From: Nemertoderma westbladi
Lineage: Eukaryota; Animalia; Xenacoelomorpha
NCBI GenBank assembly: GCA_032718475.1
Contig: JAUCBJ010003233.1
Span: forward strand, 8,742-72,741
DNA length: 64,000 bases
Reading direction: 5' to 3'
Part shown: one piece after another, positions 27,174-64,000 of the stretch
Layout: each line of letters starts with the position of its first letter
Position numbering within the stretch: the first letter of the stretch is position 1
Program-made: the position numbers and the translations under genes
The notes under the pieces: model-generated
Told to the model about the DNA's origin: nothing
The model's input: only the letters and a program-made list of their open reading frames with translations
Databases searched by the model: none

Positions 27174-27307
27174 AAACTATTTTGCGTGAGGCAAGCCACA
27201 TACAGTAGGGGATGTTGGATGTTACTAAAATAGGCACACAGTCAAACCCCACCGGGAGGAGGCACACAGGCCCACACTAAAATAGGCACACAGTCAAACA
27301 CAAGCGG

Positions 27308-29625: not shown

Positions 29626-29636
29626 GAGCAGTACTG

Positions 29637-29993
29637 TACTGTGGTAAGGCTGTCAGGTGTAGGCCTATTATTTGGAGCAGTTGCCAATGCAGCAATTTAC
29701 ATTGCTTCCATTTCATTTCTAGAACTAGTAGATTACGTAGTTGAATATATGGAATAGTTAGTTATTAGTGAATATTGCTTCTTGGATTGAAAAATTATGA
29801 AATATATAGAAAGTAGAAGTTTATTTACATTGCTTCCAGTGTGCTGGTCACTACTGTCTACTGGTGTATTCAGGTATTCCAGTATTGTAGAATTTAGGCC
29901 TACGGCTGTATGGTACCTAATGCTGTAATGCAAATTGCTGCATTGGCAACTGCTCCAAATACTAGGCCTACACCTGACAGCCTCACCACAGTA
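29637..29993. repeat. 69-bp inverted repeat with ~220-bp spacer
   Basis: 29637-29705 is the reverse complement of 29925-29993 with about 4 mismatches. Confidence 0.85.
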
Positions 29994-40000: not shown

Positions 40001-43000
40001 TCGGAGTCTGAGGCGGCAGATGAGATGACAATGTCGATGTCGGACTCAGAGGCGGCTGATGAGATGACAATGTCGATGTCGGACTTAGAGGCGGCTGATG
40101 AGATGACAATGTCGATGTCGGAGTCTGAGGTGGCAGATGAGATGAAAATGTCGATGTCGGACTTAGAGGCGGCTGATGAGCTGACAATGTCGGAGTCTGA
40201 GGCGGCAGATGAGATGAAAATGTCGATGTCGGATTCAGAGGCGGCTGATGAAATGACAATGTCGATGTCGGACTAAGAGGCGGCTGATGACATGACAATG
40301 TCGATGTCGGACTCAGACGCGGCTGACGAGATGACAAAGTCGATGTCGGACTCAGAGGCGGCTGATGAGATGACAATGTCGATGTCGGACTCAGAGGCGG
40401 CTGATGAGATGACAATGTCGATGTCGGACTAAGAAAAGAGGCGGCTGATGAGATGACAATGTCGATGTCTGAGTCTGAGGCGGCAGATGAGATGACAATG
40501 TCGATGTCGGACTCAGAGGCGGCTGATGAGATGACAATGTCGATGTTGGACTAAGAGGCGGCAGATGAGATGACAATGTCGATGTCAGACTCAGAGGCGG
40601 CTGATGGGATGACAATGTCGATGTTGGAGTCTGAGGCGGCAGATGAGATGACAATGTCGATGTCGGACTCAGAGGCGGCTGATGAGATGACAATGTCGAT
40701 GGCGGAGTCTGAGGCGGCAGATGAGATGACAATGTCGATGTCGGACTCAGAGGCGGCTGATGAGATGACAATGTCGATGTCGGACTTAGAGGCGGCTGAT
40801 GAGATGACAATGTCGATGTCGGAGTCTGAGGCGGCAGATGAGATGACAATGTCGATGTCGGACTCAGAGGCGGCTGATGAGATGACAATGTCGATGTCGG
40901 ACTAAGAGGCGGCAGATGAGATATGACAATGTCGATGTCGGACTCAGAGGCGGCTGATAAGATGACAATGTCGATATCGGAGTCTAAGGCGGCAGATGAG
41001 ATGACAATGTCGATGTCGGACTCAGAGGCGGCTGATGAGATGACAATGTCGATGTCGGACTTAGAGGCGGCTGATGAGATGACAATGTCGATGTCGGAGT
41101 CTGAGGCGGCTGATGAGATGACAATGTCGATGTCGGACTCAGAGGCGGCTGATGAGATGACAATGTCGATGTCGGACTCAGAGGCGGCTGATGAGATGAC
41201 AATGTCGATGTCGGAGTCTGAGGCGGCTGATGAGATGACAATGTCGATGTCGGACTCAGAGGCGGCTGACAAGATGACAATGTCGATGTCGGACTCAGAG
41301 GCGGCTGATGAGATGACAATGTCGATGTCGGACTCAGAGGCGGCTGATGAGATGACAATGTCGATGTCGGACTTAGAGGCGGCTGATGAGATGACAATGT
41401 CGATGTCGGAGTCTGAGGCGGCAGATGAGATGACAATGTCGATGTCGGACTCAGAGGCGGCTGATGAGATGACAATGTCGATGTCGGACTAAGAGGCGGC
41501 AGATGAGATATGACAATGTCGATGTCGGACTCAGAGGCGGCTGATAAGATGACAATGTCGATATCGGAGTCTGAGGCGGCAGATGAGATGACAATGTCGA
41601 TGTCGGACTCAGAGGCGGCTGATGAGATGACAATGTCGATGTCGGACTTAGAGGCGGCTGATGAGATGACAATGTCGATGTCGGAGTCTGAGGTGGCAGA
41701 TGAGATGAAAATGTCGATGTCGGACTTAGAGGCGGCTGATGAGCTGACAATGTCGGAGTCTGAGGCGGCAGATGAGATGAAAATGTCGATGTCGGATTCA
41801 GAGGCGGCTGATGAAATGACAATGTCGATGTCGGACTAAGAGGCGGCTGATGACATGACAATGTCGATGTCGGACTCAGAGGCGGCTGACGAGATGACAA
41901 AGTCGATGTCGGACTCAGAGGCGGCTGATGAGATGACAATGTCGATGTCGGACTCAGAGGCGGCTGATGAGATGACAATGTCGATGTCGGACTAAGAAAA
42001 GAGGCGGCTGATGAGATGACAATGTCGATGTCTGAGTCTGAGGCGGCAGATGAGATGACAATGTCGATGTCAGACTCAGAGGCGGCTGATGAGATGACAA
42101 TGTCGATGTTGGACTAAGAGGCGGCAGATGAGATGACAATGTCGATGTCAGACTCAGAGGCGGCTGATGGGATGACAATGTCGATGTTGGAGTCTGAGGC
42201 GGCAGATGAGATGACAATGTCGATGTCGGACTCAGAGGCGGCTGATGAGATGACAATGTCGATGGCGGAGTCTGAGGCGGCAGATGAGATGACAATGTCG
42301 ATGTCGGACTCAGAGGCGGCTGATGAGATGACAATGTCGATGTCGGACTTAGAGGCGGCTGATGAGATGACAATGTCGATGTCGGAGTCTGAGGCGGCAG
42401 ATGAGATGACAATGTCGATGTCGGACTCAGAGGCGGCTGATGAGATGACAATGTCGATGTCGGACTAAGAGGCGGCAGATGAGATATGACAATGTCGATG
42501 TCGGACTCAGAGGCGGCTGATAAGATGACAATGTCGATATCGGAGTCTGAGGCGGCAGATGAGATGACAATGTCGATGTCGGACTCAGAGGCGGCTGATG
42601 AGATGACAATGTCGATGTCGGACTTAGAGGCGGCTGATGAGATGACAATGTCGATGTCGGACTCAGAGGCGGCTGATGAGATGACAATGTCGATGTCGGA
42701 CTTAGAGGCGGCTGATGAGATGACAATGTCGATGTCGGAGTCTGAGGTGGCAGATGAGATGAAAATGTCGATGTCGGACTTAGAGGCGGCTGATGAGCTG
42801 ACAATGTCGGAGTCTGAGGCGGCAGATGAGATGAAAATGTCGATGTCGGATTCAGAGGCGGCTGATGAAATGACAATGTCGATGTCGGACTAAGAGGCGG
42901 CTGATGACATGCCAATGTCGATGTCGGACTCAGAGGCGGCTGACGAGATGACAAAGTCGATGTCGGACTCAGAGGCGGCTGATGAGATGACAATGTCGAT

Positions 43001-46000
43001 GTCGGACTCAGAGGCGGCTGATGAGATGACAATGTCGATGTCGGACTAAGAAAAGAGGCGGCTGATGAGATGACAATGTCGATGTCTGAGTCTGAGGCGG
43101 CAGATGAGATGACAATGTCGATGTCGGACTCAGAGGCGGCTGATGAGATGACAATGTCGATGTTGGACTAAGAGGCGGCAGATGAGATGACAATGTCGAT
43201 GTCAGACTCAGAGGCGGCTGATGGGATGACAATGTCGATGTTGGAGTCTGAGGCGGCAGATGAGATGACAATGTCGATGTCGGACTCAGAGGCGGCTGAT
43301 GAGATGACAATGTCGATGGCGGAGTCTGAGGCGGCAGAAGAGATGACAATGTCGATGTCGGACTCAGAGGCGGCTGATGAGATGACAATGTCGATGTCGG
43401 ACTTAGAGGCGGCTGATGAGATGACAATGTCGATGTCGGAGTCTGAGGCGGCAGATGAGATGACAATGTCGATGTCGGACTCAGAGGCGGCTGATGAGAT
43501 GACAATGTCGATGTCGGACTAAGAGGCGGCAGATGAGATATGACAATGTCGATGTCGGACTCAGAGGCGGCTGATAAGATGACAATGTCGATATCGGAGT
43601 CTGAGGCGGCAGATGAGATGACAATGTCGATGTCGGACTCAGAGGCGGCTGATGAGATGACAATGTCGATGTCGGACTTAGAGGCGGCTGATGAGATGAC
43701 AATGTCGATGTCGGAGTCTGAGGTGGCAGATGAGATGACAATGTCGATGTCGGACTTAGAGGCGGCTGATGAGCTGACAATGTCGGAGTCTGAGGCGGCA
43801 GATGAGATGACAATGTCGATGTCGGACTCAGAGGCGGCTGATGAGATGACAATGTCGATGTCGGACTTAGAGGCGGCTGATGAGATGACAATGTCGATGT
43901 CGGAGTCTGAGGTGGCAGATGAGATGACAATGTCGATGTCGGACTTAGAGGCGGCTGATGAGCTGACAATGTCGGAGTCTGAGGTGGCAGATGAGATGAA
44001 AATGTCGATGTCGGATTCAGAGGCGGCTGATGAAATGACAATGTCGATGTCGGACTAAGAGGCGGCTGATGACATGACAATGTCGATGTCGGACTCGAGG
44101 CGGCTGACGAGATGACAATGTCGATGTCGGACTTAGAGGCGGCTGATGAGATGACAATGTCGATGTCGGAGTCTGAGGCGGCAGATGAGATGACAATGTC
44201 GATGTCGGACTCAGAGGCGGCTGATGAGATGACAATGTCGATGTCGGACTAAGAGGCGGCAGGTGAGATGACAATGTCGATGTCGGACTCAGAGGCGGCT
44301 GATGAGATGACAATGTCGATGTCGGACTAAGAGGCGGCAGGTGAGATGACAATGTCGATGTCGGACTCAGAGGCGGATGATGAGATGACAATGTCGATGT
44401 CGGACTCAGAGGCGGCTGATGAGACGACAATGTCGATGTCGGACTCAGAGGCGGCTGATGAGATGACAATGTCGATGTCGGACTAAGAGAAGAGGCGGCT
44501 GATGAGATGACAATGTCGATGTCGGACTTAGAGGCGGCTGATGAGATGACAATGTCGATGTCGGACTAAGAGGGGGCTGATGAGATGACAATGTCGATGG
44601 CGGACTCAGAGGCGGCTGATGAGATGACAATGTCGATGTCGGACTTAGAGGCGGCTGATGAGATGACAATGTCGATGTCGGAGTCTGAGGCGGCGGATGA
44701 GATGACAATGTCGTTGTCGGACTCAGAGGCGGCTGATGAGATGACAATGTCGATGTCGGACTAAGAGGCGGCAGGTGAGATGACAATGTCGATGTCGGAC
44801 TCAGAGGGGGATGATGAGATGACAATGTCGATGTCGGACTCAGAGGCGGCTGATGAGACGACAATGTCGATGTCGGACTCAGAGGCGGCTGATGAGATGA
44901 CAATGTCGATGTCGGACTAAGAGAAGAGGCGGCTGATGAGATGACAATGTCGATGTCGGACTTAGAGGCGGCTGATGAGATGACAATGTCGATGTCGGAG
45001 TCTGAGGCGGCCGATGAGATGACAATGTCGATGTCGGACTAAGAGGCGGCAGATGAGATGACAATGTCGATGTCAGACTCAGAGGCGGCTGATGGAATGA
45101 CAATGTCGATGTTGGAGTCTGAGGCGGCAGATGAGATGACAATGTCGATGTCGGACTCAGAGGCGGCTGATGAGATGACAATGTCGATGTCGGAGTCTGA
45201 GGCGGCAGATGAGATGACAATGTCGATGTCGGACTAAGAGAAGAGGCGGCTGATGAGATGACAATGTCGATGTCGGACTTAGAGGCGGCTGATGAGATGA
45301 CAATGTCGATGTCGGAGTCTGAGGCGGCAGATGAGATGACAATGTCGATGTCGGAGTCTGAGGCGGCTGATGAGATGACAATGTCGATGTCGGACTCAGA
45401 GGCGGCTGATGAGATGACAATGTCGATGTCGGACTCAGAGGCGGCTGATGAGATGACAATGTCGATGTCGGAGTCTGAGGCGGCTGATGAGATGACAATG
45501 TCGATGTCGGACTCAGAGGCGGCTGACAAGATGACAATGTCGATGTCGGACTCAGAGGCGGCTGATGAGATGACAATGTCGATGTCGGACTCAGAGGCGG
45601 CTGATGAGATGACAATGTCGATGTCGGACTTAGAGGCGGCTGATGAGATGACAATGTCGATGTCGGAGTCTGAGGCGGCAGATGAGATGACAATGTCGAT
45701 GTCGGACTCAGAGGCGGCTGATGAGATGACAATGTCGATGTCGGACTAAGAGGCGGCAGATGAGATATGACAATGTCGATGTCGGACTCAGAGGCGGCTG
45801 ATAAGATGACAATGTCGATATCGGAGTCTGAGGCGGCAGATGAGATGACAATGTCGATGTCGGACTCAGAGGCGGCTGATGAGATGACAATGTCGATGTC
45901 GGACTTAGAGGCGGCTGATGAGATGACAATGTCGATGTCGGAGTCTGAGGTGGCAGATGAGATGACAATGTCGATGTCGGACTTAGAGGCGGCTGATGAG

Positions 46001-49000
46001 CTGACAATGTCGGAGTCTGAGGCGGCAGATGAGATGAAAATATCGATGTCGGATTCAGAGGCGGCTGATGAAATGACAATGTCGATGTCGGACTAAGAGG
46101 CGGCTGATGACATGACAATGTCGATGTCGGACTCAGAGGCGGCTGACGAGATGACAAAGTCGATGTCGGACTCAGAGGCGGCTGATGAGATGACAATGTC
46201 GATGTCGGACTCAGAGGCGGCTGATGAGATGACAATGTCGATGTCGGACTAAGAAAAGAGGCGGCTGATGAGATGACAATGTCGATGTCTGAGTCTGAGG
46301 CGGCAGATGAGATGACAATGTCGATGTCGGACTCAGAGGCGGCTGATGAGATGACAATGTCGATGTTGGACTAAGAGGCGGCAGATGAGATGACAATGTC
46401 GATGTCAGACTCAGAGGCGGCTGATGGGATGACAATGTCGATGTTGGAGTCTGAGGCGGCAGATGAGATGACAATGTCGATGTCGGACTCAGAGGCGGCT
46501 GATGAGATGACAATGTCGATGTCGGAGTCTGAGGCGGCAGATGAGATGACAATGTCGATGTCGGACTCAGAGGCGGCTGATGAGATGACAATGTCGATGT
46601 CGGACTTAGAGGCGGCTGATGAGATGACAATGTCGATGTCGGAGTCTGAGGTGGCAGATGAGATGACAATGTCGATGTCGGACTTAGAGGCGGCTGATGA
46701 GCTGACAATGTCGGAGTCTGAGGCGGCAGATGAGATGAAAATGTCGATGTCGGATTCAGAGGCGGCTGATGAAATGACAATGTCGATGTCGGACTAAGAG
46801 GCGGCTGATGACATGACAATGTCGATGTCGGACTCAGAGGCGGCTGACGAGATGACAAAGTCGATGTCGGACTCAGAGGCGGCTGATGAGATGACAATGT
46901 CGATGTCGGACTCAGAGGCGGCTGATGAGATGACAATGTCGATGTCGGACTAAGAAAAGAGGCGGCTGATGAGATGACAATGTCGATGTCTGAGTCTGAG
47001 GCGGCAGATGAGATGACAATGTCGATGTCGGACTCAGAGGCGGCTGATGAGATGACAATGTCGATGTTGGACTAAGAGGCGGCAGATGAGATGACAATGT
47101 CGATGTCAGACTCAGAGGCGGCTGATGGGATGACAATGTCGATGTTGGAGTCTGAGGCGGCAGATGAGATAACAATGTCGATGTCGGACTCAGAGGCGGC
47201 TGATGAGATGACAATGTCGATGTCGGAGTCTGAGGCGGCAGATGAGATGACAATGTCGATGTCGGACTCAGAGGCGGCTGATGAGATGACAATGTCGATG
47301 TCGGACTTAGAGGCGGCTGATGAGATGACAATGTCGATGTCGGAGTCTGAGGCGGCAGATGAGATGACAATGTCGATGTCGGACTCAGAGGCGGCTGATG
47401 AGATGACAATGTCGATGTCGGACTAAGAGGCGGCAGATGAGATATGACAATGTCGATGTCGGACTCAGAGGCGGCTGATAAGATGACAATGTCGATATCG
47501 GAGTCTGAGGCGGCAGATGAGATGACAATGTCAATGTCGGACTCAGAGGCGGCTGATGAGATGACAATGTCGATGTCGGACTAAGAGGCGGCAGATGAGA
47601 TATGACAATGTCGATGTCGGACTCAGAGGCGGCTGATAAGATGACAATGTCGATATCGGAGTCTGAGGCGGCAGATGAGATGACAATGTCGATGTCGGAC
47701 TCAGAGGCGGCTGATGAGATGACAATGTCGATGTCGGACTTAGAGGCGGCTGATGAGATGACAATGTCGATGTCGGAGTCTGAGGTGGCAGATGAGATGA
47801 CAATGTCGATGTCGGACTTAGAGGCGGCTGATGAGCTGACAATGTCGGAGTCTGAGGCGGCAGATGAGATGACAATGTCGATGTCGGACTCAGAGGCGGC
47901 TGATGAGATGACAATGTCGATGTCGGACTTAGAGGCGGCTGATGAGATGACAATGTCGATGTCGGAGTCTGAGGTGGCAGATGAGATGACAATGTCGATG
48001 TCGGACTTAGAGGCGGCTGATGAGCTGACAATGTCGGAGTCTGAGGTGGCAGATGAGATGAAAATGTCGATGTCGGATTCAGAGGCGGCTGATGAAATGA
48101 CAATGTCGATGTCGGACTAAGAGGCGGCTGATGACATGACAATGTCGATGTCGGACTCGAGGCGGCTGACGAGATGACAATGTCGATGTCGGACTCAGAG
48201 GCGGCTGATGAGATGACAATGTCGATGTCGGACTCAGAGGCGGCTGATGAGATGACAATGTCGATGTCGGACTAAGAAAAGAGGCGGCTGATGAGATGAT
48301 AATGTCGATGTCTGAGTCTGAGGCGGCAGATGAGATGACAATGTCGATGTCGGACTCAGAGGCGGCTGATGAGATGACAATGTCGATGTTGGACTAAGAG
48401 GCGGCAGATGAGATGACAATGTCGATGTTGGAGTCTGAGGCGGCAGATGAGATGACAATGTCGATGTCGGACTAAGAGGCGGCTGATGAGATGACAATGT
48501 CGATGTCGGAGTCTGAGGTGGCAGATGAGATGACAATGTCGATGTCGGACTTAGAGGCGGCTGATGAGCTGACAATGTCGGAGTCTGAGGATGCAGATGA
48601 GATGACAATGTCGATGTCGGACTCAGAGGCGGCTGATGAGATGACAATGTCGATGTCGGACTTAGAGGCGGCTGATGAGATGACAATGTCGATGTCGGAG
48701 TCTGAGGTGGCAGATGAGATGACAATGTCGATGTCGGACTTAGAGGCGGCTGATGAGCTGACAATGTCGGAGTCTGAGGTGGCAGATGAGATGAAAATGT
48801 CGATGTCGGATTCAGAGGCGGCTGATGAAATGACAATGTCGATGTCGGACTAAGAGGCGGCTGATGACATGACAATGTCGATGTCGGACTCGAGGCGGCT
48901 GACGAGATGACAATGTCGATGTCGGACTCAGAGGTGGCTGATGAGATGACAATGTCGATGTCGGACTCAGAGGCGGCTGATGAGATGACAATGTCGATGT

Positions 49001-49398
49001 CGGACTAAGAAAAGAGGCGGCTGATGAGATGACAATGTCGATGTCTGAGTCTGAGGCGGCAGATGAGATGACAATGTCGATGTCGGACTCAGAGGCGGCT
49101 GATGAGATGACAATGTCGATGTTGGACTAAGAGGCGGCGGATGAGATGACAATGTCGATGTTGGAGTCTGAGGCGGCAGATGAGATGACAATGTCGATGT
49201 TGGACTAAGAGGCGGCAGATGAGATGACAATGTCGATGTTGGAGTCTGAGGCGGCAGATGAGATGACAATGTCGATGTCGGACTCAGAGGTGGCTGATGA
49301 GATGACAATGTCGATGTCGGAGTCTGAGGCGGCAGATGAGATGACAATGTCGATGTCGGACTCAGAGGCGGCTGATGAGATGACAATGTCGATGTTGG
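34039..49398. repeat. 39-bp satellite array (~390 monomers) with higher-order structure
   Basis: Consensus gaggcggctgatgagatgacaatgtcgatgtcggactca; recurrent +5, +2 and -6 bp variants. Confidence 0.98.
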
Positions 49399-51009
49399 TG
49401 TTCGCGGTATTTCAACTTTCCATAACGCGAGTTGAATATTTTTGTATTTATTTAAAATTGATTATTCCGATATTACTACTGGGTGCGGGACCATGGGTTT
49501 TGGGCACATTCAATAAACTGGGGGCGATTTATGGGCGAACTTTGGGGCAACTTACAGGGTACGGGAATAATTTCATAGTTATAAGGGCCAGGGGGGATGG
49601 AAAATGCAAGCAGTATTCAGGTTAGCCTGAGTACTATTAGGCCCTGGCCAACTTCCTGCTGCCTGTAGGGGTGGATTTGGTAATGCGCCAGGCCTAAAGG
49701 ACAAGGACTGCCCTTAGCGGTCCCTGGCCAACAGCAGCCATTACGAGACTGAAAAGAACTCGGACCGCTGACTGCTTGTGTCAGGGATTTGCGACGGGCA
49801 CCGACGGCCCCTTAGTAGCCAAGCCGTTCTGGTTCTCGATGATCGTTCCCTTCGGGGTTCGTGAGGGGTGGAGCGGACACGCGAACGGGTGGCCAACTAA
49901 CGACTGCCCCCTGACCTAAGCCGTACTGGTTCTCGATGACCGATCCCTTCGGGGTTCGTGAGGGGTGGGACGGACATGCGAAAGGGCTGGCCACAGGACG
50001 GGTTTGACGAGAACTGCCCTTAGCGGTCTCTGGTCAACGGCAGCTACTACGAGACTGAAAAGAACTCGGAACGCTGACTGCTTGTACTGGGATTTGCGAC
50101 GGGAACCGACGACAGACCCCTTAGCCAAGCCGTACTGGTTCTCGATGATCGTTCCCTTCGGGGTTCGTGAGGGGTGGAACGGACACGCGATGGGGTCGAA
50201 AGACAAAGGACTAGACTCGACTAGACTCTACAGGCCTACCGACTGTTCGGAACAGTTTCTCGGCTGCCGAAGCGACTACGAGCCTGAAAGGGACTCGGAA
50301 AGCCTAGGTGGTTGGGTTTCTGCGATGAAACGACGGACCCCTAGCCAAGCCGTTCTGGTTCTCGATGATCGAACCCTTCGGGGTTCGTGAGGGGTGGAAC
50401 GGACACGCGAACGGGTCCACCGACATGACAGACTCCTAGCCAAGCCGTACTGGTTCTCGATGACCGATCCCTTCGGGGTTCGAGAGGGGTGGTACGGATA
50501 CGCGACAGAGTCTACCGACTGGACCGACCCTTAGCCAAGCCGGGCTGGTTCTCAATGATCGTTCCCTTCGGGGTTCGTGAGGGGTGGAACGGACACGCGA
50601 CAGGGTCGACCGACACTGACACTACGGCACTAAGACTAGGACCGAGGGAAAATCTGGGGAATATTAGGTAGGCTAAAATTCTGAGCAAACAGTGGGTAAT
50701 TAAATAATATACTGTAGGGATTTATATTATCGTGTATAATTATTGTGAATATTTGGTGTATATTGATTTGGGGAAGCCCAAAATTATTCTTAATCAAGTT
50801 TCAATGATGTTGAACAGGTTTCAACTATAGGAAGTTACATTAAAGAGTATATCCAACTAATGCAGCTTTTTATCAACCGCAAACTTGCATCTCAGAAAAC
50901 ATTCCCTCCCCACAATCAATATCCGGTGACTGGCCGGGGCTCGGTGGTCTGTTAAGTCACGTCTCCAGCATCGGCGTTTTTCCCCCCTGGTGTAGGGATA
51001 ACGGCAACA
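49399..51009 (+). repeat. 5' LTR (1611 bp)
   Basis: tgttcgcgg...ggcaaca; about 9 substitutions vs the 3' LTR by eye. Confidence 0.97.
49824..50592 (+). ncRNA. Array of six 53-nt K-turn/cUUCGg hairpins (5' LTR copy)
   Basis: CCGUWC UGG UUCUC GAU GA YCG..CCC UUCG GGG..CG U GA GGGG UG GWACGG at 49824, 49921, 50130, 50350, 50445, 50540. Confidence 0.75.
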
Positions 51010-51011
51010 AA

Positions 51012-51024
51012 ATTAAGAATAATT
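51012..51024 (+). promoter_or_regulatory. Atypical primer-binding site complementary to LTR 50782-50794
   Basis: ATTAAGAATAATT lies 2 nt after the LTR and is the exact reverse complement of AATTATTCTTAAT; no TGG tRNA-type PBS next to the LTR. Confidence 0.6.
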
Positions 51025-51260
51025 CATGCGGTTAATTTTGACAGGGTGTCAAAATTAAGGATAATTACGGTCAACTTCAACTGGTGGAAGTTGAGAATCC
51101 TTCAATACTCTTCAAAAACTCTCTACGTGCTTGCCAGCACCCACTACGAGGAAACTCTGGTATTTGAGTTGAGACAAAGTCGTGGTTTAATTAAGCAACA
51201 AACTCGATCTAACCAACTCGTAGTCGGCAGATCACATATTTGGAGAGTTGTTAACAGGGA

Positions 51261-51452
51261 ATGGAAGTATCGATCACACCCATTGATATAATTCAAGTTG
51301 AGCCAGGAATCTGGCACGTCGAAGTTGAGGTACAAGGAACGAACGTTGGACGATTCAGGATTACTGTTCGGGTGGTCCAAGCTGAGTACAATACCTACGA
51401 GGAACTGTTTTACGACATCGCGTATCTAGCCATCGATGAGGCGTTACAATGA
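51261..51452 (+). CDS. 63-aa upstream ORF overlapping the gag start (ATGA)
   Basis: Its TGA stop overlaps the gag ATG at 51449-51452; alternating beta-strand pattern followed by an acidic helix. Confidence 0.5.
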   Translation: MEVSITPIDIIQVEPGIWHVEVEVQGTNVGRFRITVRVVQAEYNTYEELFYDIAYLAIDEALQ

Positions 51453-54400
51453 CAACAAATAACGTATCCGATACCGACGAGATGGATCACCACACAGACT
51501 CGGAAGCCGACGAGGTACCAAACGTCAAGAACATGACCCGTCGGTTAGGGGCTCTTAAAGGCGGAGTAACCCGAGCGTATCAACGGATGGAGAAACAACT
51601 CAAGGGAGTCAAAACCCCCCTCAATGAGGTACAAACTCAGCTTCAAAGTATCCGAAATATCCTACAGCGGTACGAAAGAATGATACAGGCGTACCAAGAG
51701 CTCGTTCCCCCCACCGATCAGGAAAACTACCCCAAGTTGGAAGAACACGTTGTACATCTAGATGGGTTCCGCAAACAACACCGGAGGACCCTCAGTCTTG
51801 TGAGAGGCTATGAGGAACAGTATTACAAGAGGGCTGACGCGGAATCAGTACGATCCTCCAGCATCAGGACAACAGTACATCGAAAGAGAACGGGGTCCGC
51901 TAGAAATCAGCACTCCAGCGCTAGGAGCGAGATATCCGGCTCGGCGCGCAGTTCTCAAGGGGCGCCGCCACTCCGAGACCAACTGTGAGAACGGAAGGCA
52001 TTAGCCCTCAAAGCTCGGATGGAAGATGAGTATATTCAACTGCAAGCCGAGCAAGATGTATTAGCCGCCGAAACACAAAAGCGAGAGGCCGAACAAGCGG
52101 CCGAACGGCAGGCCGAACAACGTGAACAGGAGGCCGAACAACATAGACGAGAGGCCGAACGGCAGGCTGAACAACGTGAACAGGAGGCCGAACAACATAG
52201 ACGAGAGGCCGAACGACAGGCCGAACAACATAGACGGGAGGACGAACGACAGGCCGAACAACGCAAACAGGAGGCCGAACAACATAGACGAGAGGCCGAA
52301 CGACAGGCCGAACAACATAGACGGGAGGACGAACGACAGGCCGAACAACGCAAACAGGAGGCCGAACAACATAGACGAGAGGCCGAACGACAGGCCGAAC
52401 AACATAGACGGGAGGACGAACGACAGGCCGAACAACGCAATCAGGAGGCCGAACAACGCGGACGAGAGGCCGAACGAGAGATCGAACAACGTAAATGGGA
52501 AGCGGAAATGCGTAAACAACACGCCGAGGCCCAAGCAATTCTCATCCACAAAAAGAATGCGGACATTGCAAAACTCGCAGAATACGAAGCCGCACTTATC
52601 GAACGAGATATTCAACTCTACGAGGACTGGGAAAGGGATATAGATAAGGAATATGAACCAATTCCGGTACCGGAGTTAGAAAAGTCATTTACACCAACAG
52701 CGGCGAAACCTCCGAAACCCGAGATCCCGCCTACCAAACAGTCTACGCTATCGGCACAAGCCCCGGTGTTCCATCCCCCACCAGCTACGCTAAAGAATGA
52801 GGAACCTTATTTCCCATCCAACACCACGACAGCGAGTGTACCCAAGTACGAGCCTGAAAGGGACTCGGAACGGGACGCCACTCCCCGATCTAACAACCCA
52901 TTTACATCCACACCACAAACTCGTAGCCGCGTCATTATTAAAACTCCACCTATTATTGATCCATCAAGTATGGGAGTGAGTGCTAATAACTATAACCCTC
53001 CGAGTCACTCTAGTTCAGACGACGTCAGCATCATCCGGGCGTTGGAGAACCGCCTTGCCATGCCTAAGATGGAGATTCGCACCTTCGAAGGAGATCCCGT
53101 CGATTACCTCAGATTCAAGAAACGGTTCTTTGCGCAGATCGGATCAACGGACATAGCCGACACACAGAAATTGGTATATTTATCGCAATACCTGGGTGAC
53201 AAACCACGCAGAATTGTTGCATGTTTTGAAGGAGGTTCTCATGAGGCATACTATGACGCATGGAAAACCCTAGATAAAAGATACGGAAATACCGGAACTA
53301 TAATTAATAAAACTCTAGAGAGACTGATACAGGACGCGGGATCACTAGGGGACCCACAGAACATACAGGAATTCTCCGACTCTATGAAGGATGCATACTA
53401 TACTTTGAAACCCTTAAATAAGGAGGACCAGGTGAACAACATTCTAAACCTCCGACAGATCGCCAAGAAGTTCCCCGGATGGCTACAAAGTAAGTGGGCT
53501 TATAAATGTGTAGATCTCCGGCGCAGACATCCAGATCGAGATCCTAGCTTCCTTGAAATGTCGGCATTCCTGGACGATATCTCCGAAGCCATGAATGACT
53601 CAATGTTTTCAAAACAAAGTCTCGCAAAGTTGGACGGAATAGAGAGCAACTCCAGGAGTAAGATAACCCCTCCGAAACCGAGATTCCGCCCCCCACCGAT
53701 AAGTACGATGGCCATTACCATGGCCGAGGATTCCGACGACGAAGACTACGAGGAACCGACATCCGCCGAGGAATGGGCATGTTATCTCGCGAGTTGGGCA
53801 CCCGAAAGGGAAGGCGTCACAAATTCCCTGCTCTGTCTCTTCTGTGGGGAGAAACACAAAGTGGAATTCTGCAGAAAGTTTCAGTTCGCCGAACTCGTCC
53901 CACGCTTCGAGGCGATAATGAAACACCGAGGATGCTTCCGGTGTCTTGGAACAGGTCACTATGTTCGGGAGTGCGACCAAAGATCATGCTGTACAGTCTG
54001 TAACGACCAACGCCATCACACGCTCCTCCACATCCCCGCGAACTTCGATTTTACTACCCTCCCCTTTCGGATCGAAGCCAGGCGAAGAGGAGAAACAAAC
54101 CACATCTTCAAAGGAACCCGGACAACCCAACGGAGAGAAACCAACCCGTTTAAGATCTCCACCGATACACCACAAGTAACCAATATTTCGGCCACGATTA
54201 ATCTTATAAATCGCCGCTACATGGTTTTCGCAAAGGTAATCCCAGTAAGGATCCAAGGAGTCAGCAAATCTTTGACGACACTCGCGTTCCTCGATAACGG
54301 GTCTGACGGAACCATCATCGACCGGGATTTCCTCGAGCAACTCGGCCTAGAATATGAACCTTGTAAACGGCCCATACAAACCATCACCGATAACAGAGAA

Positions 54401-57400
54401 GTAGAGTCCGGGGAGGTACAACTCCAGATGGAAGGAGTGATGAAGGGCTACGAAACGGCTAAGTTAACCATCAAGAACGCCTTGGTACACACAGACCTCC
54501 GGGTGCGGTTCCGACAATCAGCCGAGTACGCCCCCCTCATACAATTGGACCGAGACGATGTAGACCTGAGGTGTCCGCAGTTGGACGTGAACCGTATCAC
54601 CCTACTGATTGGACTTGATACACCGGAACTACACATCCCCACCGGAGATATCGCTCGATCTATAAACCAGGATGATGGATTTTATGCTGAACGAACAATA
54701 ATGGGATGGACACTCTGCGGCATTAAGGAGGAAACTACGGACACCTATACCTACCTTCCTAAATGTCAGATTAAAGAGAATGTAACCTCTGTGGGTTATT
54801 GCTCAGCTTCAGATCTTGACGAGGATTTGTTCCTGGAAACCGAGAAAACCCAACGAGAGATGACGAAATATTTTAATTTGGAGACCCAGGAGTTCGCGGA
54901 AAAGGACGAAAACCCATCCGAAGAGGACCAATATTGTATGGACGTTCTCGACCAGGCCACGTTTAAAGACGGACATGGGTGTTCACCTATGTTATGGAAG
55001 GACCCAAACAAACCAATGGCAAACAACGCCAGCATGGCACTTAGGCGACTTAAAGGGATTCTACGCCGGCTGAATGACCAACCCGAGATAAAGGAGAAAT
55101 ATAATACCGTAATCCAAGGATATCTCGATGATGGATTAGCAGAAATGGTACCACGGAATGAACTGCAAGGTGGTGAAAGAACATATTATCTCCCAACCCA
55201 CTATGTAGTAGAAGCCCGCAAAGGTGGGAAAATCCGAGTGGTAAATGATGCTGCCGCTATGTACCAGGGCGAATCCCTAAACAGTCAACTTTACACGGGA
55301 CCCAACATATATAGCACACTCATTGGCGTATTGATCAGGTTCAGGGAAAACCGGGTAGCATTCACCTGTGACATCAAGGCCATGTTTCATCAAGTTCGTA
55401 CGTTACCAAGAGACTCGGACTGTCTACGTATCCTATGGACGGATAAAACACTCACTCAACAGGAGATTAGCCAACTCACGATCAAGGATGTAGACGTAAT
55501 GCGTATGGTCGTCAGGATCTTCGGCGCTAAGGACTCGCCGGTAGCATGCAGTGACATGCTAAAGAGGACAGCAACTATGTGCGAAAACGAGTTCCCTCCA
55601 ACCGTCATAGAAACCATTCGACGATGCTTCTACGTGGACGACGGATGCGCCGGCGCGGATAATGTGGATGAGGCATATCGGCTAGCAATGGGGATGGTAG
55701 AATGTCTGAAGAAAGGAGGGTTTCCGCTCGTGAAATTCAGATCCCACGACAAAACACTTAAGGAAAAGTTTCCGGAGGACATCCGGCTGGATAATAACAA
55801 GATGTATTCGGAGGATGTGGAACATCGTGTACTTGGGATTGAATGGGACATAGAATCAGACGAATTCATCTTCAAGTATAAACCCCTACCCAAGCCTATG
55901 ACAAAAAGGGGATGTTTGTCGATAAAAAGCGCCATCTTCGACCCACTAAATTTCATATCTCCAGTAACCTTGGCCGGAATGAACCTGATTAAGGAAATGT
56001 GGATAGAAGGACTGGGATGGGACGAAGAGCTCCCCCCATACCTCAGCGTCAAATGGAGAAAATGGACGGAGCAGCTCGAACACCTACATCTTATGCGGAT
56101 ACCTAGACCGTTCTTCCTCGATAAATTGCCCACCGATATCTTCCAGCTCCACACCTTTTCGGATGCTTCAAATACCGGAATCGGCGTAGTCACCTTCCTA
56201 CGGAGACTAAGTAATGATGGAAACGGCGATACAAGCTTCTTATTCTCCAAAGCAAAGACAGTATCCGGGGAATTCGTAGCAACGATCCCGAGACTCGAGC
56301 TACAAGCTGCAGTTTGGGCAGTAAGACAGAATCGCATGGTCATGCGGAATCTACGGATCCCCATAGAATCACAACACTTCTGGGTAGATTCGAGTATAGT
56401 TCTCTATTATCTCCACTCTCCATCACGGCGTCACACCACGTTTGTTGCAAACCGAGCCACGGAGATTAAACAGTGTACCGGCCGAGAACAGTGGCATCAC
56501 GTGAACGGGAAGGAAAACCCAGCGGACTTATCAAGCCGAGGCGCCACCCCAAAACAACTCGGTAAAAGTGAACTCTGGCTTACAGGCCCGGAATTCCTAC
56601 GGCAGCCACAATTAACATGGAGTACCCGATTCGACCCCGAGCTCGATAGCGGAAAATACTCCGAGGACGATAAAGAGATCCGTAAAATCCATCGAAGCAA
56701 CGCGGTGGAAATTTATAGTTGTCTGACTGAGCCTGCAAAGGACTCGGGCAGGCACTATAACGTCGCGACGATCACCCAACTAGCGGCGTCTTTACATCGG
56801 TTGATCGAGCGAACTTCATCCATGAGACGGCTCGTCCACCACGTTATAACCCTTCGCAACTTCCTACGGTGGAAAAACAACAAACCGATAGTTCAACGGA
56901 ATATACAAGAACTCATTATCGCGGAGAAGTGTATTGTTAGATATGTCCAGAAAGAAAGTTTCCCCGATGAATGGGAACAACTTAGTGCGGGCAAAACGTT
57001 GAAACCGGACAGCCCAGTCTACCAACTGAGACCAATGATGGGAGAGGACGGACTGATCCGACTGAATACCCGGATGGCAAACGCCCCGGTCCAATATGAG
57101 GTTAAATACCCAGCGCTTCTGCCCGGAACGTCGACACTAGCTAAGCTATTAATTCTACAATGTCACGAGGACAACCACCACGCAGGACAGAATTGGATTA
57201 TAGCTAATATAAGACAAAGATATTGGATCACCCACATCCAGCCACTGATCCGGAAAGTGTTGAAACGTTGCTTCACCTGCAGATGTTACCTAGCGCCACC
57301 AATCACCCAAAAGATGGCCGACTTACCAGCCACCCGTCTACAAGCGGATTCCCCACCATTCTACGTCACCGGAGTGGACTGTTTCGGACCGTTCACGGTT

Positions 57401-58336
57401 ATTGAACGACGATCCAACATCAAATGCTGGGGAGCCATCTTCACCTGCCTAAGATCTAGGGCAATTTACCTAGATATCGTGGTAAATCTGACACAACACG
57501 CATTCATCAACGCTCTGCGTCGGTTCGTGGCGAACAACGGGACATGCCGCCACATGTATTCCGATAATGGTACAAACTTTGTGGGAGGAGAAAGAGAACT
57601 TAGAGAGGCGATCGAGGGATGGTTTACCGATAACACTGCATCCCAAGTCTGGAAGGAACACCAGATACAGTGGCACTTCCAGACCCCCTTAGCACCCCAT
57701 ACGAGCGGGGTATGGGAGAAACTGATCGACCTAGTGAAACGATCCATGCGCGTCGCTCTAGGCGATACCCGGGTAACCCATGACACCCTCCGCACAACAT
57801 TCTGCGAGATCACGGCTACCCTGAACAACCGACCCATTGTTCCTATCCGCGACGACCCCACAGACCTGGAACCCCTCACTCCTAACCACTTACTGGGGAG
57901 ACCCAAAACCCACCTCCTCCCGGAAACCATGTTCCCGGATCCCAACGAGATCGCGAAACACACAAACTGGAAAAAGGCCCAAGCGTTGGCAGCGCATTGG
58001 TGGAGAATTTGGGCCCAGGAATACCTCATAACCCTCCGGACCAGGAGGAAATGGAACAACACCTACCGGAACGTCACAGTTGGCGACATGGTACTAGTTA
58101 AAGAAGATCTCAAAGACCGCGTTCACTGGCCTGTGGCGCGGGTCGTGACCATACACCCAAGCAAAGACGGACTTGCGAGGACTGTGACGATACGAACGAA
58201 ATCGGGCCACTACCAACGCCCCATCCAAAAGCTGTGCCTTCTTGAAGGCAATGATAGCGGTGATTCTACGAGAGGTGATAAGATCCCTACTCAAGATACT
58301 GCTGTGGACATCGGTGACAATGATAAATGTGTTTAA
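51449..58336 (+). CDS. Bel/Pao Gag-Pol polyprotein with a single in-frame TGA (51986-51988)
   Basis: ORFs 51449 and 52019 share a frame; FEGDPVDY, three Cys/His knuckles, protease LDNGS, RT YVDD, RNase H FSDAS, integrase GVDCFGP/SDNGTNF/WEKL. Confidence 0.93.
52085..52490 (+). repeat. Coding tandem repeat forming an E/R/Q-rich coiled coil in Gag
   Basis: Repeated gaggccgaacaacatagacga / cgacaggccgaacaa units (EAERQAEQHRR). Confidence 0.9.
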
Positions 58337-58616
58337 ACCCTTCTCATCATGTTGACAAACTCCTTTTAAACTGTGATTTATCGACAACGAGTTATGGACC
58401 CCCTTTAAACCAACTGTAACCACGCAATGGTATTTGTGTTTCCTCGTGTGTTATGTGGAGTCCAGCGTCACCCTGCAGATGTTTCGGCTGACGCAGGGTC
58501 GTTTATGCATTGTTTACCCTGATTTTGGTCATCAGGACCTACGATATTGGATTATTGGAAATGGAAAAGATTTGAAGTGGAATTCATTGTATTCATCGCA
58601 GTATGTTATGTTGTCC

Positions 58617-59032
58617 GTTGCGTGCGCAGTTCGGGGCGTAGGCGGTGTAACGAGTCCAGCTGTAGATCCCGGATCGCCGCGCAACACCCCCTCTATCCCG
58701 TTATTCTGGTGGGTCCATGGTGCATCCACATGACTTCGAAGATAGAGGGTTTTATGTTTCTCAGTCGCGTTATTCTGGTGGGACCGTTGCGTGGATTTTG
58801 GGGCGTAGGCGGTGTAACGAGTCCAGCTGTAGATCCCAGAATGTTGCGTAACCCCATCCCACATGACTTCGTCGACTGAGCTTTATGTTGTTGGGAGTGT
58901 TATTCTGGTGGGTCCATGGTGCATCCACGTGACTTCACTCTCAGCGTCTTCATTGTCCGTTACGTGCGCAGTTTGGGGCGTAGGCGGTGTAACGAGTCCA
59001 GCTGTAGATCCCAGATTGCCGCGTAACACCCC
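58617..59032 (+). ncRNA. Triplicated ~75-nt structured RNA in the pol-ORF2 intergenic region
   Basis: Copies at 58617, 58786, 58959 with invariant core ggggcgtaggcggtgtaacgagtccagctgtagatccc and a compensatory closing stem. Confidence 0.6.
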
Positions 59033-59581
59033 TTCCACGACAAAGATTAACCAAAGAAAATGATTGAATATAGTTGGAAACGATGAAAAGGATCAGACAA
59101 CTCTACTATAAACCTGAATGATGACGTGTATACTGATGAAAATGTAATGATGCGCACCCTGGTGCTGCGCTTATAACAAATGATGATAGCCGGGGGGCTA
59201 TAAACCCAATGATGATGTGGAAATAAATAAATATGAAATAAATGGTGGAAATAAATGTGTTGAAATATGTGGAAATAAATGAAATGAGATGAAATAATAA
59301 TGAAATGAAAAAAGAAAAAAAAAAGGTATAAAAAAGTCTAAAGAAAAGAATTAGAAAAAAGAAAGGACAAAAAAGTCATAAAAAACTGGTTGGATATTAT
59401 GTATAGCTATAGTAACTGTAAATGCTGAATGTATTAGCAATAAGATGATAGATGCCTATATAGCAATGTTATTAATAAACTGAATTAAATAAAAAACTGA
59501 ATTATTCTGCTATCGCTATAGTTTCAGACTTTCTGGACTTATAATTAACTGATCTAATTTGTAACGGATATAATCGTAAAT

Positions 59582-62182
59582 ATGGACCCAAATCGCCAAA
59601 TTATCGGCGAATTACGTAACACGATAGATCTACTGGAATATTCGCAACCCGGATCCCCTGACTTTGATACAAATTGGAACACTCTGCTAAATGAGAACGT
59701 GCGAGTCATTAAATTCACCGGGCGAGAGGGACCGGATTCTAAGAATCTACTAGCCCTCCGGTTAGCCGATGCTAGTACGAGACTGAAAAGAACTCGGAAC
59801 GCAAAGGCAACCGGAGGGGACGATTCGTCGTTTTGGGAAACGTTCCGGCAGAGCGTCTACAGATCCCGATGTTTGATCTACGACAACGAGGGAAACGCGA
59901 CGCCCACCTCAAAAGCGATTACGTTGGCGAGATGTCAAAGTTTCGTCGACGACAAGAGTACATACCTCGCCCACTGGGGAAACCTGTCGGAGTGTACGGC
60001 GACGCTTCGAGAGGAACGCATATCGATTATCCAAAACCGCGACGACTACCAGGAAAAGTACGGGGCGAAAGAATACGGTCGATCCTTAGTCGTCGTCCTC
60101 GGAACCCTGGACGGTTTGGTACTGGTGTGCCGAATATTCCCGACACCCAGACAGGAAGTGCAGACAGCCGGAGCGATCTGGTTGCTGCCTCCGGAAATCC
60201 AAAAGATCCTCTTCGACTTCGACGTCATTAAAATCGGGGCGGATATCAAGGCGGACGTCCGGAACGACTACGCGAACGCTCCTGCAGGAAGAAACCGACG
60301 AGACGACCTCAACGCCCTTAGCCATTGCATCGACACTCAAACGCTACTAGCCTGGGTACGATTCGCCGAGTTCATGCGAGGATTCCAAGAGGTGAGACCG
60401 ACGAAATCAGGGATCGGCTACCTCGCTGTGCTCAACGGCGGTATCGACTTCAAACCCCAGAAATTCCGGGACTATAATAAAATATATGGTGGATACCCGG
60501 GATTGGAAATAAAGAGCGAGCGAGAGGGTCGATGGAAGGACGTTGATCGGAAGTGGACGATACACCAAAGGTGGGAGAATCCCGATCGACGGAACTACGT
60601 TTACGTCGTTATGGAATGCTACACCGTCGCTAAGTTTATCTGTAAAACTCTAGATAACCTCATCACGGCGGTCCCCCTTTCCTTTGTCGACTACGACTGG
60701 AACGAGGTTATAAACCACGCGTTTAAAGCGGTCGAGAACATTACACCGGGAGAATCAAAAACGCCCGCCGTTATCGATTCCTGGGACGAGAGCGGACCTT
60801 ACGACATCCCTACGATTACCGAACTTCTCGGTGCGGAGGAGCCTCTGATCTCTTCGGAAGGAGAAGAGATATGGCTAAACGAGGGTGTTCTACTCTCCAC
60901 CCCGAAGCGACAACTCGAGCCGGAGGCCGCGTATGGACCGGCCGCCAAACGGGTTGCCTCGGCCGAACCGATGAAGAGAGCAGGCGTTTACACCCCACGC
61001 GGCTCTGGTAGCCCCACGAGGGAGGTGGCTACTACAGCTGCATTGAGCGACTTCGGCGACATATGCCAACGGTTATCCCCGTATCCTTTCCCGGGCGGCG
61101 AAGATTGGTCGTCGGAGATTCCGAGTACCAGCCACCAACGGACCCGCTCAGCGATACTGGTCGAGGAGGGCCCCAGCGATGCGCCGACACCCGACGATCT
61201 CCTCGGTATCCCTCCGTCGAAAACCCCGGCACCTCTTCGTCGACCAGCGGTGGCTACTACACCCGCCGTTCCTCAGGACCCTATGCGACTAACCCGTTGG
61301 TACGCCGAGCAAACTGAATGGATCCACCGCCAGAAACGGTCATCCGAGTTGAGACCAGCGGGACACAAAGAAGGTTATCGGAGCGAGAACCTACTACGCA
61401 AAAGCCTAGCATTCCGCGGGCTACCGACCACCGAGAATATTCCGAAGAGCGACCGACGACTCGAATACTACGTCGGCGTCCCGATTCCGATATTTCCTGG
61501 TCGAGAGATGCAGTTGGAGGTATGCGGCGACTGCGGTTCGGAGCAGTGCCCACGCAGCAGAAGGAATCGGGTTACCGATTCTTGCCTCCAGCTCCTCGGG
61601 ATACTCTATTGCCCATACTGCGCGACATCAGGCCACGACGTTTCCGTCTGCCCGATCCTTTATAACCTCTGCACCACGTGCGGTTTCCGTGGACATTCCT
61701 CTAGCCCCCGCTGCTATATCAAATGTCCAACCAAAGACGTTACCGCTATGGGAAATATGGTCATGTTTGAAACATACGCAAACAGCCACTTAAAGACCAA
61801 GATTCGGAGAAACGCTCGGAATATTGCGCAGGAGATGGCGTGTGGATATTTCTCCTTCCCGGAACGCCTCCACACGTCGGCCACGCTACCTTTCCATTAC
61901 GTGGATCTGCAACTGAGCGCCGGATTATTCGGTCCATTTGAAGTCATTAGACGATTATACTCGTATAAAGAGGAGTTCGGTGACGGAGAATGGTTCCTAG
62001 AGGCACGCAAATCTGAGTTGGAAAGACGAACCGACATGATCCCCATGCCTTCGAAAGGAAGAGCCGCCAGGAGACAAGCCGAAGCGTTACTCACGATGGA
62101 TGTTGACGCTCCTCTACCAGCCATAGCGATCGATGAGAGTCGACGGGCGAAGAGACGAAAGGCGTATCAGAGAAAGAAATAG
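59582..62182 (+). CDS. Accessory ORF2: DEDDy/WRN-like 3'-5' exonuclease domain plus CCHC zinc knuckles (866 aa)
   Basis: ExoI IYDNEG; LPPEIQKILFDFDVIKIGADIKAD (ExoII); CIDTQ; YVVMECY (ExoIII, E for D); CPYCATSGHDVSVC and CTTCGFRGHSSSPRC. Confidence 0.8.
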   Translation: MDPNRQIIGELRNTIDLLEYSQPGSPDFDTNWNTLLNENVRVIKFTGREGPDSKNLLALRLADASTRLKRTRNAKATGGDDSSFWETFRQSVYRSRCLIYDNEGNATPTSKAITLARCQSFVDDKSTYLAHWGNLSECTATLREERISIIQNRDDYQEKYGAKEYGRSLVVVLGTLDGLVLVCRIFPTPRQEVQTAGAIWLLPPEIQKILFDFDVIKIGADIKADVRNDYANAPAGRNRRDDLNALSHCIDTQTLLAWVRFAEFMRGFQEVRPTKSGIGYLAVLNGGIDFKPQKFRDYNKIYGGYPGLEIKSEREGRWKDVDRKWTIHQRWENPDRRNYVYVVMECYTVAKFICKTLDNLITAVPLSFVDYDWNEVINHAFKAVENITPGESKTPAVIDSWDESGPYDIPTITELLGAEEPLISSEGEEIWLNEGVLLSTPKRQLEPEAAYGPAAKRVASAEPMKRAGVYTPRGSGSPTREVATTAALSDFGDICQRLSPYPFPGGEDWSSEIPSTSHQRTRSAILVEEGPSDAPTPDDLLGIPPSKTPAPLRRPAVATTPAVPQDPMRLTRWYAEQTEWIHRQKRSSELRPAGHKEGYRSENLLRKSLAFRGLPTTENIPKSDRRLEYYVGVPIPIFPGREMQLEVCGDCGSEQCPRSRRNRVTDSCLQLLGILYCPYCATSGHDVSVCPILYNLCTTCGFRGHSSSPRCYIKCPTKDVTAMGNMVMFETYANSHLKTKIRRNARNIAQEMACGYFSFPERLHTSATLPFHYVDLQLSAGLFGPFEVIRRLYSYKEEFGDGEWFLEARKSELERRTDMIPMPSKGRAARRQAEALLTMDVDAPLPAIAIDESRRAKRRKAYQRKK

Positions 62183-62337
62183 TGGATCGGGATATTCCAG
62201 GAACATTTATCGAACATTTATTTTTATACAAACTCTAGGCCAAATTAATTAAAAACTATGCAATATTAAATTTGGGTTTTTTATATTGGAATGACCTACG
62301 CAAACTCAATCGACCGACAGACTTCACGAAGGTCATT

Positions 62338-62346
62338 GGGGGGGAC
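62338..62346 (+). promoter_or_regulatory. Polypurine tract
   Basis: GGGGGGGAC immediately before the TG of the 3' LTR. Confidence 0.75.
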
Positions 62347-63957: not shown

Positions 63958-64000
63958 GTTGGACTAAGAGGCGGCAGATGAGATGACAATGTCGATGTTG
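63958..64000. repeat. 39-bp satellite resumes
   Basis: gttggactaagaggcggcagatgagatgacaatgtcgatg continues the interrupted monomer. Confidence 0.95.

Follow-up and report, generated by a model that had tools for sequence, protein, structure and literature searches.

A candidate self-primed Bel/Pao retrotransposon in Nemertoderma westbladi and predicted intron-split primers in its relatives

A young full-length Bel/Pao LTR retrotransposon of Nemertoderma westbladi probably primes reverse transcription with RNA derived from its own LTR, in the manner of Tf1, which would likely place a known mechanism (Tf1-type self-priming) in a new setting. Such self-priming had been proposed in a first-pass annotation of the same DNA, and LTR pairing at the primer binding site (PBS) of distant relatives now supports it; one of the observations that would speak against it was nevertheless partly made, as a tRNA-Lys(CUU) 5′ half pairs with the site over 7+7 positions.

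Structure of the element and its primer site

The 14.6-kb element is inserted in an array of a 39-nt satellite in the window (the whole 64,000-nt stretch of DNA analyzed; all features given here lie on its forward strand). The left target-site duplication, GTTGG (49394-49398), lies inside the array, which resumes beyond the right GTTGG (63958-63962). Comparison of the LTR pair places the 5′ LTR at 49399-51009 and the 3′ LTR at 62347-63957; both are 1611 nt long, run from TG to CA and differ by 9 mismatches (99.4 % identity; 7 transitions), all of them upstream of 50780, and the LTR end was found only twice in the window. Gag-pol (51440-58336) lies in one frame, in which one TGA (51986-51988), possibly read through and possibly inactivating, stands between the first 182 codons and the remainder; because this stop lies in gag, the copy may be non-autonomous. 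The encoded domains, with the matches on the 2115-codon frame, comprise DUF1759, two zinc knuckles, a protease, a reverse transcriptase (RT; YVDD), Peptidase_A17/RNase H (DAS), an integrase, and DUF5641, with Pfam-type matches for Peptidase_A17, DUF1759, DUF5641, and the integrase zinc finger (E 7e-38, 5e-15, 2e-28, and 3e-7, respectively) and a weak match for the protease, and 99 of the 100 listed protein matches carry PF05380 or PF03564. The domains in gag-PR-RT-RH-IN order, the LTRs, the 5-bp duplication, the polypurine tract (G7 plus a 2-nt spacer AC, 62338-62346), and the grouping of pol all fit, and the element belongs to Bel/Pao (Belpaoviridae), whose clades bear names such as Pao, BEL, Sinbad, Suzu, and Tas.

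An extra ORF of 874 codons (59558-62182) gave zero matches against Pfam and PDB; a weak lead points to a DEDDy/WRN-type exonuclease region, and Cys/His motifs are present. Six GC-rich repeats of ~70 nt (49816-50600) with no Rfam match and no unusual fold lie in what is predicted to be U3 of the LTR. A ribozyme reading of these repeats and of those at 58.6-59.0 kb was rejected (no Rfam match; folding z -1.2 to +0.8), and the Rfam scan of 49300-64000 returned only two chance matches.

After the final CA of the 5′ LTR come the 2-nt spacer AA (51010-51011; 0-5 nt in relatives) and then the PBS ATTAAGAATAATT (51012-51024), which is the exact reverse complement (13/13) of the LTR stretch AATTATTCTTAAT (50782-50794), the predicted self-primer, split by no intron and presumably cut after 50794. 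Both the perfect complementarity and the lack of a TGG 2 nt past the LTR had been pointed out in the first-pass annotation and are confirmed: no TGG occurs within 8 nt of the LTR end, so that the site is not a PBS of the type that matches a mature tRNA 3′ end. The LTR stretch has its 3′ end facing U5, as a primer requires, and the entire element contains no other 13-nt inverted pair except the one that involves the equivalent site in the 3′ LTR. A search for other primer candidates in the element found none. One that would be spliced within the focal LTR was rejected, as it reached at best 10 bp at spacer 5, was no better than chance and would delete the site. In Caenorhabditis elegans, Cer7 encodes its own primer; ARAGORN detected no tRNA genes in the window or in the 78 related loci, so that nothing supports an element-encoded tRNA-like primer here.

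Just upstream of the self-primer lies GCCCAA (50776-50781), a motif common upstream of pairing sites, and transcription would start at or near 50780 if its C-A is read as an initiator-like CA. The ATTAAA reported earlier is indeed found at 50839-50844, 45 nt past the predicted cut, and is a candidate polyadenylation signal. A TATA-like word had likewise been noted at 50759; it is present, but with ~21 nt to the predicted start its distance is short for a TATA box, and TATA[AT] occurs in the 45 nt upstream of only 2/24 curated elements (see below).

It is highly improbable that the match arose by coincidence between AT-rich stretches or is left over from a local rearrangement, with a decayed PBS. 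The site consists of A or T at 11/13 positions, and the region does contain a local duplication and an inverted repeat; however, dinucleotide shuffling of the AT-rich 241 nt gave a match of at least 13 in 8/20000 cases, shuffling of the entire LTR in 1/3000, and 0/47 LTR regions of other elements gave 13 with the focal PBS. Because shuffles and swaps rarely or never reach 13, AT-richness, initially raised as a caveat, does not explain the match. In addition, the LTR identity of 99.4 % leaves little time for decay, and four features are held in common with the relatives.

Primer sites and split primers in related elements

One metagenome scan yielded 78 related loci, a sample biased towards the nearest proteins of the focal element, which are ~31-40 % identical; a close relative was not found among them, nor any relative among viral contigs. 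After the exclusion of 27 loci without LTR or leader sequence, 51 loci and the focal element were searched, and the subsequent removal of 4 near-duplicates left 47 relatives plus the focal element, that is, 48 rows. Within the 750 nt that precede gag, each ACA was taken with spacers of 0-5 and compared with the element's own upstream sequence and with that of every other element. Two types of site were encountered among the relatives. Eight (L001, L002, L025, L034, L060, L064, L071, and L074) carry a TGG at most 9 nt from the LTR end and have a best self-match of only 6-9 pairs; tRNAs were not assignable to their PBSs from the viral tRNA set (best 8-11 matches). In most of the others, the site lacks TGG and is complementary to the LTR of the same element. 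The premise that Bel/Pao elements normally use tRNA fails in the present sample, biased to the nearest proteins as it is, in which most readable relatives are non-TGG.

Outside the TGG group, 24/38 elements including the focal one (23/37 without it) form at least 11 pairs with their own LTR, as compared to 21.9 % of 1786 swapped pairings (own vs. swapped p 7e-7, an optimistic value, since the rows are related and not independent), and the own hits of 9/38 stay below 10 pairs. In the TGG group of the first tree, 1/10 reaches at least 11 pairs, namely L040. Swapped pairings reach a median of 8-10, a loose null, and single matches of 10-11 bp therefore mean little alone. Checks on the start and on the splice sites are stronger than the pair counts because the search demanded only GT and AG: among hits of at least 10 pairs, the PBS starts with [AG]T in 26/30 own and 151/1011 swapped cases, donors match 3-4 RAGT positions in 15/21 vs. 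85/938, and acceptors read YAG in 20/21 vs. 409/938. Where two LTR copies fix the LTR end, the non-TGG or ambiguous elements give 13 pairs in the focal element (0/47 swaps), 15 in L005 (0), 11 in L056 (1), 10 in L062 (0), and 10 in L026 (6), and the TGG-type L001, L034, and L060 give 0, 5, and 6 pairs, respectively.

From the 30 own hits, a curated set of 24 was chosen by eye. Those of L027, L032, L063, L066, and L077 were dropped as likely chance, and L039 was left out as its exon 1 lies off the contig. In the search of all 51 loci, a 12-bp match in L017 was rejected as a local palindrome. The curated duplexes comprise 10-15 bp and start 0-5 nt past the LTR end in 24/24; upstream of them, a C at -3 (15/24) and an A at -2 (18/24) are frequent, which the GCCCAA of the focal element fits, and AWTAAA stands after the predicted cut in 14/24 and before the site in 3/24 (p 0.001). 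The focal element agrees with its relatives in the C-A motif ahead of the duplex, in a PBS that starts with [AG]T, and in a poly(A)-like signal past the cut. As the PBS 10-mers differ in 23/24 curated elements, one invariant tRNA cannot explain them. The compensatory changes that had been suggested as a check are hence seen: pairing recurs in distant Bel/Pao elements with different letters and the same geometry and is absent from the TGG type.

In 16/24 curated elements, a predicted GT-AG intron, with splice sites close to consensus, interrupts the LTR partner of the PBS (for example, 9+6 in L005, 8+5 in L009, 10+4 in L040, 6+7 in L061, 4+10 in L065, and 4+7 in L021), and in the other 8, including the intron-less focal element, the partner is contiguous. 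The predicted introns span 75-488 nt, one of them across a contig gap, and L012, L044, and L047 also yield a partner only after GT-AG removal. In L056, one LTR has the 3′ splice site and the other is joined precisely at the junction that is unspliced in the relative L072, which shows the donor for it; the L056 contig may mix copies, since its two LTRs are only 88 % alike.

In the tree, 28 rows, mostly of the self type, form a clade with a support of 99, and the focal element forms a long branch (1.29-1.40) outside of it, between this clade and the TGG group, with no starred small group around the branch. With such a position and no close relative (its nearest proteins are 37-40 % identical), its covariation support is borrowed from other lineages. 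The self-type L040 falls among TGG elements. On the tree without outgroup, PBS type clusters, with 2 changes on 28 labelled rows as compared to a shuffled mean of 6.3 (0/500 as low), and a placement of all self-type rows on one side is neither rejected (AU p 0.30) nor demonstrated.

Rival primers and predicted folding

In Drosophila copia, a tRNA half cut at nucleotide 39 serves as primer. A comparison with host tRNA 3′ ends and fragments had been advised, and the present site was compared with halves of tRNAs from viral sequences. The absence of TGG agrees with self-priming; an interrupted 7+7 match to a tRNA-Lys(CUU) half, taken from a non-host gene, speaks in part against it. This match opens an alternative in which a host tRNA-Lys(CUU) 5′ half, cut after nucleotide 39, is the primer and pairs with 51012-51030 through two helices (51012-51018 and 51023-51029), the LTR match being an occluding structure or a relic. 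We regard it as unlikely. A tRNA pattern scan listed at least 80 loci, one of them with a eukaryote-type tRNA-Lys(CUU) gene (L096, from a giant-virus bin and not the host). Its half pairs 7+7 around a 2x4 loop, with nucleotide 39 facing 51012, 2 nt from the LTR, and this non-host duplex is predicted at -12.6 to -13.3 kcal/mol vs. -10.8 for the self-primer. Against 57 viral tRNA genes (34 anticodons), 14/1500 shuffled PBS regions pair as well, or 20/1500 with the first five bases kept (~1 %), and L009 and L040 have anticodon-loop matches of 7-8 nt. Half-tRNA primers are, moreover, reported for several Ty1/copia lineages (PMC6317226).

However, the LTR match is perfect and rarer (~4e-4), whereas that of the tRNA is interrupted and comes from a post hoc search prompted by a resemblance to a tRNA anticodon arm, with a tRNA that is not the host's and a tRNA set that lacks many anticodons. 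The duplicated block downstream (see below) stops exactly at the end of the self-match and leaves out the second tRNA helix. Furthermore, 21/24 curated PBSs contain no anchored tRNA-half run of at least 7 in the 57-gene set, although each of the 24 pairs with its own LTR, so that a tRNA-Lys half cannot explain the group. Its match to the focal site is a real but weaker signal that could be due to chance, point to a primer held in reserve, or be a vestige of how the site arose.

For self-priming by the LTR, folding gives results that depend strongly on the RNA ends. With starts at 50775-50782 and an end at 51030, pairing of site and PBS is predicted at 0.94-0.98; with a start at 50700 it drops to at most 0.01, and this loss with longer 5′ ends fits the expectation if the site must be near the RNA 5′ end. 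Downstream, a near-copy of the PBS had been described, and it is located at 51054-51066 (12/13), where the one mismatch would form a G-U pair; together with the four preceding bases it repeats 51008-51024 at 16/17. A second exact PBS copy is found in the relative L073, and 22/24 curated elements have none. When the second copy is included in the RNA, the site splits between PBS (0.00-0.96) and copy (0.00-0.82) depending on the chosen ends, and the predicted pairing with the true PBS is often below that with the copy.

A conformational switch had been suspected in this region, with TTAATTTTG pairing to either copy. The competing second copy is in line with a switch; the pairing that was to operate it is not, for TTAATTTTG is complementary on paper to both copies, but its pairing with the first (51008-51016) has a probability of 0.00 in all 30 folds that contain it, and this form of the switch was rejected. 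On these fold probabilities, competition of the second copy for the primer is plausible and the TTAATTTTG switch is not. Directly past the PBS, an 11-bp hairpin with a 5-nt loop (51032-51042/51048-51058) usually forms (probability 0.17-0.96), in which TTAATTTTG pairs with the second copy; over its full length, the leader is predicted to be no more stable than its shuffled versions (z -1.47).

In a third alternative, which appears improbable as well, the pairing serves structure or regulation as a conserved duplex (for packaging, dimerization, or translation control), and the primer is something else. Two constrained conformers of near-equal energy (-65.6 and -67.6 kcal/mol at 37 °C, 0 difference at 20 °C) would suit such a role, as would a cleavage that is only predicted and the lack of shared accessory stems. 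U5-IR-like stems adjoin the self-primer duplex in Tf1-type systems; a crude duplex test found no shared stems beside the present duplexes (own = swapped, p 0.53 and 0.67), with irregular U5/leader pairing (-17.7 kcal/mol; 1/46 swaps as good) in the focal element alone. Yet the duplex starts 0-5 nt past the LTR end in 24/24, takes the place of TGG and has a common terminal pair, all properties of a primer, and the element offered no other primer candidate.

Proposed mechanism and known systems

If the self-priming reading is correct, transcription would start at or near 50780, and the RNA 5′ end would fold back to pair with 51012-51024. Cleavage after 50794 (an A-[C/U] end is common to the relatives) would then fall to a nuclease, which the Tf1 parallel suggests is the RNase H of the element itself, and RT would extend the freed 3′-OH through the 2-nt spacer into U5. 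The PBS would be rewritten from the primer, so that the two sites stay matched. The second copy (51054-51066) would probably act as a decoy that lowers priming, because priming there would misplace the LTR end. The primer would be ready-made in the focal element; in the split relatives, it would exist only once the LTR intron is spliced. Presumably, primer removal would let the LTR intron persist there, as the spliced joint would be cut off as primer, with no copying of it from the 5′ end; intron-less lineages such as the focal element could arise when the 3′ copy is now and then spliced. It is possible, although we hold this broader picture to be doubtful, that tRNA-free priming is normal in a large animal Bel/Pao branch, usually with a primer spliced from an LTR intron, and that the focal element is a deep intron-less lineage with a decoy PBS, which may record a step from tRNA-half to self-priming because its primer site still fits the tRNA-Lys half.

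If true, self-priming would extend to Bel/Pao, a third LTR superfamily, and broadly to animals, and such elements would be freed from tRNA supply and conceivably from tRNA-fragment silencing at the PBS; self-priming would also explain the failure of PBS searches on them. In the relatives, a splicing-made primer would make reverse transcription dependent on the spliceosome, and the survival of the LTR intron would be explained by a spliced joint that leaves as primer. The predictions are exact to the base (a start near 50780 and a cut after 50794).

To our knowledge, Tf1 is the only element for which self-priming has been shown; for its kin and for a few plant lineages it has been predicted. 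A literature search over listings and abstract openings, outside of which Repbase reports and subscription journals may describe such sites, found no report of Bel/Pao self-priming or of a splice-built primer, and a word search of the main text of two Bel/Pao papers gave no mention of PBS, tRNA, or priming (PMC554778, PMC3118150). Further literature was compared (PMC3601003, PMC5408684, PMC5443660).

In Tf1, the PBS is bound by the 11 bases at the start of the RNA, and RNase H cleaves between bases 11 and 12 (PMC7175516); the cDNA often keeps a copy of the primer (PMC11042837). As in Tf1 and Tf2 of Schizosaccharomyces pombe and Tj1 of S. japonicus, all members of the Tf1/sushi group of Ty3/gypsy, the focal PBS complements a short LTR stretch of the same element, close to where the RNA is predicted to begin; the lengths are similar (11 in Tf1, 10-15 in the present Bel/Pao set), and a cut is needed in both to free a 3′-OH (PMC7175516, PMC5341516, PMC4600332). 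Tf2 is controlled by a start-site choice that omits the self-primer, which parallels the start-site dependence of folding in the focal element (PMC5341516). The focal element may hence work like Tf1, but is not a member of Tf1/sushi, as its domains are those of Bel/Pao and indicate no Ty3/gypsy chromovirus ancestry. Unlike the Tf1 group, it has a duplex of 13 bp, probably 1-2 unpaired 5′ bases and a second PBS copy, and the Bel/Pao set has no detected shared accessory stems, a predicted intron that splits the primer in relatives and a mechanism predicted here from sequence.

Self-priming has also been predicted for Tcn1 chromoviruses and for TAR (Houba, Osr-1) of Ty1/copia, likewise from sequence, and TAR shows that it has been proposed outside Ty3/gypsy too (PMC6317226). 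Unlike the present set, these are plant and fungal elements of other superfamilies, for which the portion of that source compared here describes no intron-split primer (PMC6317226). The TGG-type Bel/Pao relatives have the same domain set and order and related polyproteins and differ by a TGG site without self-match. Half-tRNAs have been proposed for four copia lineages (Osser, Bryco, Gymco-II, and Bianca; PMC6317226), which have a non-TGG PBS as well, and the focal PBS partly matches a tRNA half ending at nucleotide 39. In these Ty1/copia elements, the PBS is tied to one tRNA, whereas in the Bel/Pao set its letters vary freely and follow the LTR.

Split pairings and their variants among relatives

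Among the related Bel/Pao loci from the metagenome scan, four sites (L030:90-110, L024:504, L039:229, and L013:280) are half-visible or mutated and consistent with the split self-match, a primer-binding site (PBS) that pairs with its own LTR once a predicted GT-AG intron is removed. In the half-visible cases, a single exon half is present on the contig, with matches of 8, 7, and 10 nt, while the mutated one combines an LTR end that now reads ATA with an 11-bp split match. In L012, L018, L044, and L047, pairing appeared by eye to extend by three to four bases upstream of the main duplex, beyond an unpaired AA.

The sequences that bear on the LTR intron lie at L056:130-145 and 6918-6928 and at L072:6726-6737. 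In L056, the intron is precisely missing from one of the LTRs; provided that the contig is not a mosaic, this loss would be a direct record in DNA that splicing had occurred at the primer junction.

L040 carries a 14-bp split self-match (from position 249 onward), and its Pol clusters with those of elements with a tRNA-type TGG site, for which a second origin, recombination, or misplacement are alternative explanations. At L062:56-68 and in L054, the PBS starts with TTGG, as in a tRNA site, yet a 7+3 pairing with the element's own LTR is also present when a GT-AG segment, whose donor is weak, is bridged; these sites are either ambiguous or transitional in type.

Repeats, gag region and genomic surroundings

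The LTRs of the window element are unusually long because each contains six GC-rich repeats of ~70 nt (49816-50600 and 62764-63548), which are 88-100% alike among themselves and gave neither an Rfam match nor a notable fold. Folding likewise gave nothing notable for a ~40-nt core repeat present in three copies in the spacer 3' of pol (58631-59012). In the gag region, 5' of DUF1759 and the zinc knuckles, this single copy carries an in-frame TGA (51986-51988) that may be either read through or inactivating.

The element is inserted within a 39-nt satellite of ~15 kb (about 34040-49398 and from 63958) with higher-order interruptions and strong GC skew. Elsewhere, a plus-strand ORF (16543-17613) with a weak RAG1 match that fails the cut-off (E 1.5e-4) is possibly a fragment of a Transib-like transposase. 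Remains of other elements (3570-7453, 10310-11443, and 24935-29761) comprise an rve integrase, an integrase zinc finger, and an endonuclease (Exo_endo_phos) ORF, along with two long ORFs for which the Pfam search returned no match.

An additional ORF downstream of pol

The interval between pol and the 3' LTR holds an extra plus-strand ORF of 874 codons (59558-62182), for which a DNA_pol_A_exo1 plus CCHC cluster provided a weak Atlas lead (at 0.82). Two distant relatives were found (E 4e-6 and 1e-4), and the alignment revealed a common KxGxxIxxD-like core, whereas the D-x-E motif present in both relatives is missing from the window's ORF. Owing to this shared core and missing motif, the ORF possibly encodes an inactive DEDDy-type domain. 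For bdelloid LTR elements, PMC5408684 reports ORF3s of DEDDy type.
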